From Candidatus Porisulfidus sp. TsSOB (GTDB taxonomy: Bacteria; Pseudomonadota; Gammaproteobacteria; Poriferisulfidales; Poriferisulfidaceae), in the NCBI GenBank assembly GCA_002631715.1, contig MRSX01000004.1:19864-83863 (forward strand): a DNA stretch of 64,000 nt, in the 5' to 3' direction. Positions 47,854 through 48,894 of this stretch are shown here, piece by piece. Position 1 is the stretch's first letter; each line of letters begins with the position of its first letter. The notes below the pieces were generated by a model, which was not told where the DNA came from, did not search any database, and saw only the letters and a program-made list of their open reading frames with translations. The position numbers were made by a program, and so were the translations under genes.

Positions 47854-48894
47854 ATGAAATCAAAATGTTTTGCTTTAGTGTCGGCTGTCATGCTGACCGC
47901 CGCTGCAAGCCTCGCGGTTGCTGGGCACTATGGAGAGCACAAGGAAGGACATCATGGTGGGCATCATGGCAAGAGTTTCTTTATTCAGCGATACGACCAG
48001 AACGACGATGCCCAAGTGACCGCAGATGAATTCGAGCAGGCACGCCGGGCTCGCTACGACCTAACTGACGAAGACGACAATGGCCTGATCGATGTCGACG
48101 AGTACGTACAGGGGTACGCTGGCCGCCTGAACAAGAAAATCGAAAGGGAACGCAAGGGGCACATCAAGCAGACCCGCCGTCGCTTTGGTGCCTTGGACAA
48201 AAATGACAACGAACAGATAGAGTGGGAGGAATACGAAGCGTCTGGTGAACGCAGTTTCAAGCGGTTTGATGTGGACGAAAATGGCGTCATCAACGCGGAT
48301 GACCCACGCCCCAAGCGCAGTTGCAAACATAAGTGCAAGGGCTACAAGGGCAAAGGGAAGGGCGACAAGGCAGACGCCGGCCACGATCATGAGCACGGCG
48401 AGGACTACAAGCGCCACCACGGCAAGCACAAGGGCATGTGTAAAAAGTATGCGAAGCGGGTCATTCACATGCCGACCACCCACAGAAAGAAAGGGATGAT
48501 GCGGAAGTACGATACCGATAAGGACGGCTCGATCACGCATGAAGAATTCAGTGCCAAGCGCCGCGCCGACTTTGACAGGACAGACGAGGACGGGGACGGA
48601 AGGCTGAACTCGGAGGAGTATGCGCTAGAGTTCGGCAACCGCTTGGACGAGAAAATCGAGAAGACCCGGGAGAAAAAACTGAAGCGGGCGAAGAAGCGTT
48701 TCGGTGTGATGGACAAGGACGAGAATGGAGGAATAAGCTTCGAGGAGTATCAGGTTTCAGGGCAGAAGATGTTTTCGCGCCACGACACGAATGAAGATGG
48801 CGTCGTGTCCGAAAGCGATAGGCCCAGGCATAAACACGGGAAAGGGCACAAGGATCACTCTGCGAAGTCGAGAAAAAAAGAACGCGACCATTGA
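47854..48894 (+). CDS. Secreted multi-EF-hand, His/Lys-rich protein
   Basis: Signal peptide ending AVA; eight DxN/DxDG-type 12-residue loops in two 4-loop halves. Confidence 0.85.
   Translation: MKSKCFALVSAVMLTAAASLAVAGHYGEHKEGHHGGHHGKSFFIQRYDQNDDAQVTADEFEQARRARYDLTDEDDNGLIDVDEYVQGYAGRLNKKIERERKGHIKQTRRRFGALDKNDNEQIEWEEYEASGERSFKRFDVDENGVINADDPRPKRSCKHKCKGYKGKGKGDKADAGHDHEHGEDYKRHHGKHKGMCKKYAKRVIHMPTTHRKKGMMRKYDTDKDGSITHEEFSAKRRADFDRTDEDGDGRLNSEEYALEFGNRLDEKIEKTREKKLKRAKKRFGVMDKDENGGISFEEYQVSGQKMFSRHDTNEDGVVSESDRPRHKHGKGHKDHSAKSRKKERDH

Follow-up and report, generated by a model that had tools for sequence, protein, structure and literature searches.

Results

An exported protein with eight EF-hands

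The window analysed here is a stretch of 64,000 nucleotides (nt) from Candidatus Porisulfidus sp. TsSOB (assembly GCA_002631715.1, contig MRSX01000004.1, positions 19,864 to 83,863 of the forward strand), and the subject of this report is a gene at positions 47854-48894 of that window, which encodes an exported protein of 346 amino acids (aa) with two sets of four EF-hands joined by a linker rich in histidine, cysteine and lysine. The assembly, from a 'Ca. Porisulfidus' sponge symbiont, comprises 1.60 Mb and is 97.6% complete. The gene and the parts of its product are listed below, together with the per-residue confidence of an AlphaFold2 model (predicted local distance difference test, pLDDT) and the ratio of nonsynonymous to synonymous substitution rates (dN/dS) where they apply.

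47840-47845, plus strand: Shine-Dalgarno sequence AAGAGG, with the ATG 8 nt downstream; kept in four Porisulfidus loci
47854-48894, plus strand: coding sequence of the exported 2 x 4 EF-hand protein, 346 aa; stop codon at 48892-48894
47854-47922, plus strand: predicted Sec-type signal peptide, aa 1-23, with a predicted cut between AVA and G; a reading of the sequence, at low pLDDT
47923-47973, plus strand: His-rich mature N-terminus GHYGEHKEGHHGGHHGK, aa 24-40; 6 His in 17 residues; dN/dS 0.0-0.2
47974-48303, plus strand: half A, with EF loops at 47995-48030, 48067-48102, 48196-48231 and 48268-48303; pLDDT 94-98
48304-48465, plus strand: predicted disordered linker, aa 151-204; 7 His, 3 Cys and 14 Lys; pLDDT 45-77
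48466-48483, plus strand: HMPTTH motif; P207 and H210 invariant in 69 of 69 aligned family members
48484-48819, plus strand: half B, with EF loops at 48511-48546, 48583-48618, 48712-48747 and 48784-48819; pLDDT 93-98
48820-48891, plus strand: His/Lys-rich C-terminal tail, aa 323-346; 5 His and 6 Lys in 24 residues

The eight loops start at residues 48, 72, 115, 139, 220, 244, 287 and 311, and all of them match the canonical pattern D-x-[DN]-x-[DN]-x-x-[ILV]-x-x-x-[DE]. The protein also scores well above the cut-offs of the Pfam profiles EF-hand_1 (PF00036; E = 9e-21, 72.3 bits compared to a cut-off of 25.4) and EF-hand_7 (PF13499; E = 1.3e-20, 73.9 bits compared to a cut-off of 30). The loop pattern, the Pfam scores and the modelled helix-loop-helix pairs place it in the EF-hand superfamily. 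Halves A and B are 39% identical over 133 residues (E = 9e-33), and the internal 2 x 4 duplication is therefore real. An earlier note on this DNA had described eight loops in this arrangement, an internal duplication, export and two His-rich termini, all of which are borne out. Its linker with three cysteines and about ten histidines, in which GHDHEHG and RHHGKHKG stand out, keeps the cysteine count, while the histidines number 7, or 9 when HMPTTH is included.

The signal peptide consists of MKSK, 19 hydrophobic residues and the AVA-G site, and a hydrophobic leader is found at the N-terminus of every member of the family alignment. Two other export routes were considered and rejected: the lipobox of a lipoprotein is absent and Cys5 lies too early to serve, and there is no twin-arginine motif for Tat export. 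Within the HMPTTH motif, H210 aligns with H38 of half A. The family alignment also has a conserved His about 10 residues before the first EF loop of each half (residue 38 and residues 205-210), and the arginines R64/R236, R110/R282 and R100 are likewise invariant.

A protein family with relatives in an iron operon

A single-sequence search found 82 homologues of about 300-350 aa covering 80-99% of the query, and a profile search found at least 267 clusters at E <= 1e-10. The members come mostly from Xanthomonadales, Alteromonadales, Cellvibrionales and marine metagenome-assembled genomes (MAGs), and their annotations go no further than hypothetical or 'EF-hand domain-containing'. The window protein is homologous over its full length to this 8-EF-hand family, which has 2 x 4 EF-hands, a central MP(T/S)TH and conserved arginines, and it keeps all 17 of the 17 family-invariant columns, P207 and H210 among them.

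We compared gene neighbourhoods in seven relatives outside the genus, drawn from several gammaproteobacterial groups, at eight loci of which two carry the same protein: Paraglaciecola, Parahaliea, Pseudoxanthomonas (two loci), three MAGs and a TARA scaffold. A shared cluster in the order DUF4198, EF-hand gene, ApbE::DUF2271 fusion and TonB-dependent receptor is found in all seven, and a PepSY-like membrane protein often comes next after the receptor; the separate DUF4198 gene before the EF-hand gene is absent from two of the relatives' loci. Beside the operon, 6 of the 7 relatives have a divergent DUF3450-ExbB-ExbB-ExbD-TonB-TPR cluster, the Pseudoxanthomonas loci being those with no adjacent Ton cluster. 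The loci were also scanned for Fur boxes with a 19-bp consensus, with 500 shuffles as a control. Matches of 14-16 of the 19 bases lie upstream of DUF4198 in five of the seven relatives. For four of them the score was reached by 0 or 1 of the 500 shuffles, and the fifth box (L011), which runs into the called gene start, came up only when the whole locus was scanned. A second Fur-box-like site, again matching at 14-16 of 19 bases, immediately precedes the receptor gene at four loci (L004 7585-7609, L007 10507-10531, L010 8706-8736 and L011 10639-10663), where the receptor gene may have an iron-regulated promoter of its own.

The operon of the relatives is the 'PepSY-like' flavinylation system of flavin-based periplasmic iron reduction, which Meheust et al. 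(2021; PMC8238504) linked to periplasmic ferric reduction and iron assimilation. In the Caulobacter version of the system, transposon insertions reduce fitness under iron limitation imposed by ethylenediaminetetraacetic acid (EDTA). The published description names ApbE, DUF2271, DUF4198 and the PepSY-like protein, and the EF-hand component is not listed there. All of the examined relatives outside the genus house their EF-hand gene in this system, in contrast to the window's genome, which is without the whole of it.

Published expression data point in the same direction for two genes that resemble the family by position. In Alteromonas macleodii the 'calcium-binding protein' MASE_18635 rises under iron limitation by a log2 fold change of 5.3; it is flanked by ApbE(-DUF2271) MASE_18630 and DUF4198 MASE_18640, near the TonB-dependent receptor MASE_18645, and all four genes of the MASE_18630-18645 set rise 30- to 120-fold (PMC7190382 supplement). 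The position of MASE_18635 is the same as in the relatives that we examined. In Caulobacter crescentus, CC_2193 (the EF-hand gene CCNA_02274 with the DUF4198 gene CCNA_02275) is 65-fold up in low iron and 168-fold up in a fur mutant, and its promoter proved to be Fur-regulated in reporter and gel-shift assays (PMC3751524). CC_2193 adjoins the TonB-dependent receptor CCNA_02277 and pairs EF-hand with DUF4198 as the relatives do, and CCNA_02274 is described as a shorter, alphaproteobacterial EF-hand protein. We know of no His/Cys tracts in it.

Neither the profile search nor a search with the Paraglaciecola homologue as query returned a named Alteromonas entry, and of 201 species drawn from the taxonomic family to which the Paraglaciecola genome belongs, 14 carry the protein family. 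In the literature, no paper turned up that counts the EF-hand protein as a component of the flavinylation system, none in which 'EF-hand' and 'DUF4198' occur together (the CC_2193 paper spells 'EF hand' without a hyphen), and none that joins a calcium-binding protein, ApbE, a TonB-dependent protein and iron limitation.

The gene stands alone in Porisulfidus

None of the partners of the iron operon was recovered from the window's genome. DUF2271 is absent by hidden Markov model search, and DUF4198, ApbE-DUF2271, the PepSY-like protein and the orthologous receptor are absent by tblastn at E = 1e-3. The best Fur-box matches upstream of the EF-hand gene and of the adjacent ankyrin gene reach 10 and 8 of the 19 bases, which is chance level, and the genome encodes three Fur-family regulators. 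The gene thus does not lie between DUF4198 and ApbE::DUF2271, by a receptor or behind a Fur box; its neighbours are the ankyrin gene, hpf and lptB.

The nearest homologues are 69-91% identical; they belong to MAGs of 1.5-2.0 Mb that carry the label 'uncultured candidatus Porisulfidus sp.' and to a gammaproteobacterial bin obtained from a sponge, and the DNA runs that contain the EF-hand gene sequence are sponge metagenomes. A maximum-likelihood tree groups the Porisulfidus proteins in a single clade (support 100/100). Its sister group consists of the operon-bearing proteins P0009, P0010 and P0011 (100/99), and the clade sits within marine lineages that carry the operon, which makes the orphan state a derived one. 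Of the 16 species of the genus 7 have the gene, and all of the 37 species surveyed from ten other genera of the order lack it. This patchy distribution, together with a low GC content at third codon positions (GC3; 0.67, compared to 0.70 in the ankyrin gene and 0.80-0.85 in flanking core genes), fits acquisition from outside the order.

Fold and comparison with known proteins

The AlphaFold2 model, built with an alignment of 69 sequences, has a mean pLDDT of 83.9 and a predicted template modelling score of 0.75, with pLDDT above 93 in both halves and below 60 in the signal peptide and the His tracts. Each modelled half is laid out as EF-hand, 12-aa helix, EF-hand, a long helix of 34 aa, and again EF-hand, 12-aa helix, EF-hand. 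The whole model had no match in the PDB at E <= 1e-3 by Foldseek (all E > 0.009), and the 2 x 4 architecture is therefore without a solved equivalent.

The closest known proteins are the lanmodulins (LanM), periplasmic proteins that bind lanthanides. The lanmodulin structure 8FNS gave the best target-normalised TM-score in the Foldseek comparison, 0.66 compared to about 0.27 for calmodulins, and lanmodulins are the top PDB sequence matches of the family profile (6MI5 at 1.4e-10, then 8FNS, 9PI2 and 8DQ2), ahead of calcineurin B and calmodulin. The likeness extends to a predicted periplasmic location and to EF pairs with unusually short 12-aa spacers, and the gene for LanM, like the operon members of the present family, has a TonB-dependent receptor close by, in its case for the metal that LanM binds. 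There are also differences. Lanmodulin has four EF-hands, all with spacers of 12-13 residues, in one compact bundle, whereas the window protein has eight, with 12-aa spacers within each pair and 31 aa, in one long helix, between pairs. The loops typical of LanM carry Pro2 and Asp9, whereas here Pro is found at position 2 in none of the eight loops, and position 9 reads T, D, E, N, T, N, S and S, that is, a carboxylate in 2 of 8 and Asp in 1 of 8. The protein scores 59.4 bits against the NCBIfam lanmodulin model NF053806, below its cut-off of 135, and the lanthanide context of LanM differs from the iron (Fur) context of the family.

Other EF-hand proteins are more distant. The protein scores 62.5 bits against the type III effector family XopAW (NF041410), below the cut-off of 120; XopAW has bacterial EF-hand pairs of similar spacing, in contrast to the Sec signal and eight hands found here it is delivered by type III secretion. 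Nor is the protein of the calmodulin/calcineurin-B type, which has two globular lobes and in which about 24-25 residues separate the loops of a pair: its loop starts are 24 residues apart and its spacers 12 aa long. Calsymin (CasA) of Rhizobium etli, a secreted protein of a symbiont with six EF-hands in three repeats and no cleaved signal, is alike by description in its repeated EF-hands and symbiont origin. A likeness by description also links the ZnuA-type (cluster A-I) solute-binding proteins, whose flexible His/Asp/Glu-rich loops capture periplasmic Zn2+ and resemble GHDHEHG and HHGGHHG here.

Selection, variants and the His/Cys tracts

Selection was measured by pairwise Nei-Gojobori dN/dS among four Porisulfidus orthologues (343-350 codons, synonymous divergence dS 0.19-0.41). 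The overall dN/dS was 0.19-0.23 and no segment exceeded 0.67: the EF halves had 0.06-0.31, the linker 0.24-0.67 and the N-terminal His tract 0.0-0.2. No frameshift or stop was found in the 7 carrier species. The EF-hand gene is kept under purifying selection without its partners.

Linker and tail histidines and cysteines are a feature of the Porisulfidus clade alone, with 6-10 His and 2-4 Cys compared to 0-1 His elsewhere. Within the clade C158-x3-C162 is conserved and C197 is not. The Lys-rich character of the linker is older, being present already in the operon-bearing sister proteins P0009 and P0010.

In two species the protein takes a 197-aa form with four EF-hands (L006 5001-5594, which is G049, and G045; proteins P0017 and P0019). 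It arose by in-frame recombination between the halves, in which EF1-2 of half A were joined to EF7-8 of half B and EF3-EF6 were lost with the whole linker. Its N-terminal His tract holds about 17 His and is roughly threefold longer, which looks like compensation and speaks for the importance of His density.

Two further open reading frames (ORFs) of the window's genome were recorded in this connection. The only other ORF with at least two EF-hand-like loops (DLDRNEFISEEE and DQNSDGRIGLYE) lies on contig C16 at 18906-19238 and encodes 110 aa. The sole other convincing His-rich protein is an 840-aa ORF with a HEHEHEGEDEHDEHDEHGEH tract on contig C4 at 5886-8408, which may be a metal transporter. 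A proteome-wide richness in His was considered and rejected, as nearly all of the other His-dense ORFs look like wrong-frame artefacts.

The chromosomal slot

The gene lies in a site that varies within the genus. The surrounding locus is otherwise canonical (yrbG-kdsD-kdsC-lptC/A-lptB-[rpoN]-hpf-ptsN-rapZ), and its features are as follows.

46781-48969, no strand assigned: slot between hpf and lptB, the usual place of rpoN; a variable insertion site within the genus
46842-47723, plus strand: Sec-exported ankyrin-repeat protein of 293 aa, the upstream neighbour of the EF-hand gene
47793-47813, plus strand: terminator-like hairpin with a 9-bp stem, followed by a T-rich run, between the ankyrin and EF-hand genes

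The slot has lost rpoN, and the Sigma54 DNA-binding domain is absent genome-wide. Its cargo, the ankyrin gene followed by the EF-hand gene, runs on the strand opposite to the flanking locus, and the ankyrin gene is likewise upstream of the EF-hand gene at loci L001-L003. The hairpin is kept in five Porisulfidus loci, about 40 nt before the EF-hand start codon, and may be a terminator of the ankyrin gene or an element of the 5' untranslated region. An Rfam search of 46600-49100 gave zero matches, the hairpin included, and a promoter scan upstream of the EF-hand gene gave nothing useful. In the same locus, the ORF at 49692-50756 is a natural LptC-LptA fusion, with an LptC domain at residues 17-187 and an LptA/LptD_N domain at residues 225-331.

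Comparison across the genus shows how changeable the slot is. It is empty (58-90 bp) in four divergent Porisulfidus species and holds the ankyrin gene alone in G044. In G039 and G041, very close relatives that share 98.8% LptB identity with the window, the ankyrin gene is joined by unrelated cargo. G050 has its EF-hand gene elsewhere, beside an apparent tRNA gene (L032, G050:C1:174000-184000, gene at 4404-5426). Also beside it at L032 is a gene of 521 aa (MTHRKLPIGIQDFRAIRERGYYYVDKT...), a second copy of which adjoins lptB in the same genome (L031 921-2486); this duplication suggests a mobile or recombining element. The EF-hand gene is accessory, mobile and only loosely tied to the ankyrin gene.

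Discussion

We propose that the window protein is a periplasmic, Ca2+-folded scaffold whose flexible His/Cys tracts capture transition metals, and that it descends from a component of an iron operon, a reading to which we give about an even chance of being correct. Its ancestor would have been an accessory component of a Fur-controlled, TonB-dependent operon for flavin-based iron reduction and uptake in Gammaproteobacteria. In the reduced symbiont genome the gene stands alone, with its partners and Fur box gone, in the variable slot vacated by rpoN. Marine Ca2+ would fill the eight loops and give two rigid four-EF-hand bundles made of lanmodulin-like short-spacer pairs, and the three clade-specific His/Cys/Lys tracts (the N-terminus, the CxxxC linker and the C-terminus) would capture Zn, Ni, Cu or Fe(II), so that the protein would serve to buffer metals in the periplasm or to chaperone them.

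Marine Ca2+ stands at about 10 mM. At this concentration canonical loops in the periplasm would be saturated, and the calcium would therefore be structural and not sensed. The earlier note had seen an exported Ca2+ buffer or sensor; with loops that are likely loaded permanently, a structural role for calcium is more likely than either sensing or buffering. Its suggestion that ligands for transition metals had been added to an EF-hand protein fared better and is supported by the His/Cys tracts. Periplasmic zinc and nickel proteins have flexible metal-capturing loops that resemble GHDHEHG, HHGGHHG and CxxxC, and the His/Asp/Glu tracts and the CxxxC motif of the window protein probably bind Zn, Ni, Cu or Fe(II). 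The earlier note had also held that its reading would fall if homologues proved to have an unrelated routine role, and this is in part what emerged, the homologues being members of a TonB-dependent iron-acquisition operon preceded by Fur boxes.

Several points weigh against the scaffold reading. The gene is dispensable, as 9 of the 16 species of the genus do without it, including relatives with 98.8% identical LptB. Binding of transition metals is a prediction, and the identity of the metal a guess. The ancestral role of the EF-hand protein within the iron operon is only loosely defined, and the Alteromonas and Caulobacter genes are its equivalents by position and annotation, not by sequence. 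The sequencing runs that contain the gene have a flat, DNA-like depth of 25-35x across all genes, which is uninformative on transcription.

A first alternative is that the EF loops themselves hold a hard cation, for example Fe(III) delivered by the TonB-dependent receptor, so that the protein would be an iron holder or shuttle and the His tracts an add-on. The lanmodulin matches by sequence profile and by TM-score (0.66), the 12-aa spacers within EF pairs, and the position of the relatives beside a TonB-dependent receptor and behind Fur boxes all favour it, and the retention of family-invariant residues in the orphan suggests an activity that does not need the partners. However, the loops are of the ordinary Ca2+ type, without Pro2 in any of the eight and with a carboxylate at position 9 in two, and the LanM score of 59 bits falls far below the cut-off of 135. 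A literature search found no paper joining lanmodulin and DUF4198. We know of no EF-hand protein that handles iron physiologically, and we regard this alternative as unlikely. A bolder form of the same idea, which we find slightly less probable, is that the family is a periplasmic 'ferri-modulin', the first EF-hand family in iron acquisition, whose lanmodulin-like loops retain Fe(III), or some other hard cation that the TonB-dependent receptor brings in, until the flavin-based reductase acts on it; the symbiont copy would then be a free-standing derivative whose His/Cys tracts widen its range of metals.

The ankyrin neighbour raises a different possibility, that the protein is directed at the host. 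Its release alongside the secreted ankyrin protein would allow it to chelate or sense Ca2+ in the phagosome or cytosol of the sponge and so to hinder phagocytosis, with its cationic Lys/His tracts binding host surfaces. One or two Sec-exported ankyrin genes adjoin the EF-hand gene in five Porisulfidus loci, the low GC3 common to both genes suggests a shared accessory island, the iron-operon partners and Fur box have been lost, and there is the sub-threshold likeness to the XopAW effectors. Other symbionts also provide points in favour: those of sponges have ankyrin proteins that modulate phagocytosis, and Rhizobium etli in symbiosis secretes calsymin, a protein with several EF-hands. However, the origin of the family is bacterial and periplasmic, not eukaryote-like; only a Sec signal is visible, with no sign of passage across the outer membrane and a single secretin in the genome; and the Lys-rich linkers pre-exist in the operon-bearing P0009 and P0010. 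The pairing itself is loose: the ankyrin gene occurs without the EF-hand gene in three close relatives (G039, G041 and G044), and in a fourth, G050, the two are far apart. A part in host Ca2+ signalling, as the earlier note had put it, is unsupported, and we think a host-directed role rather unlikely.

The gene could also be a remnant of the lost iron operon, or cargo hitch-hiking on an island, with no important function at present. Its patchy occurrence (7 of the 16 species of its genus and none of the 37 from elsewhere in the order), the unrelated cargo that fills the variable slot in close relatives, and the half-size variants produced by in-frame recombination would all be expected of such a remnant. 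A dN/dS of about 0.2 over 343-350 codons argues against it, as do the intact eight loops and invariant residues, the lack of frameshifts and stops in the 7 carriers, and the fact that the short variants are in frame and have an apparently compensating His-tract expansion; we judge it improbable. An extracellular nucleator of calcium carbonate or phosphate, also raised in the earlier note, is highly improbable, as all that speaks for a mineral role is that cationic tracts occur together with numerous acidic Ca2+ sites, and against it stand homologue contexts unrelated to biomineralisation, EF domains that are modelled as compact and folded in place of acidic disordered nucleators, and the lack of a demonstrated route past the outer membrane.

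Conclusions

What is new here is that a widespread, uncharacterised family of 2 x 4 EF-hand proteins can be placed, from gene context, as a recurrent and predicted Fur-controlled member of a periplasmic flavin-based iron operon, a family that published accounts of the flavin-based iron reduction system do not mention. Bacterial EF-hand proteins are mostly uncharacterised, and this family now has a concrete, testable context. Lanmodulin provides a precedent for how a small change in EF-hand design can lead to new metal biology. The copy in the sponge symbiont amounts to a natural experiment, in which the partners have been stripped away, selection persists, and His/Cys tracts have been gained. 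The metals that these proteins bind would show what EF-hands contribute to iron uptake, and whether such parts are put to new use for general metal homeostasis in reduced symbiont genomes.

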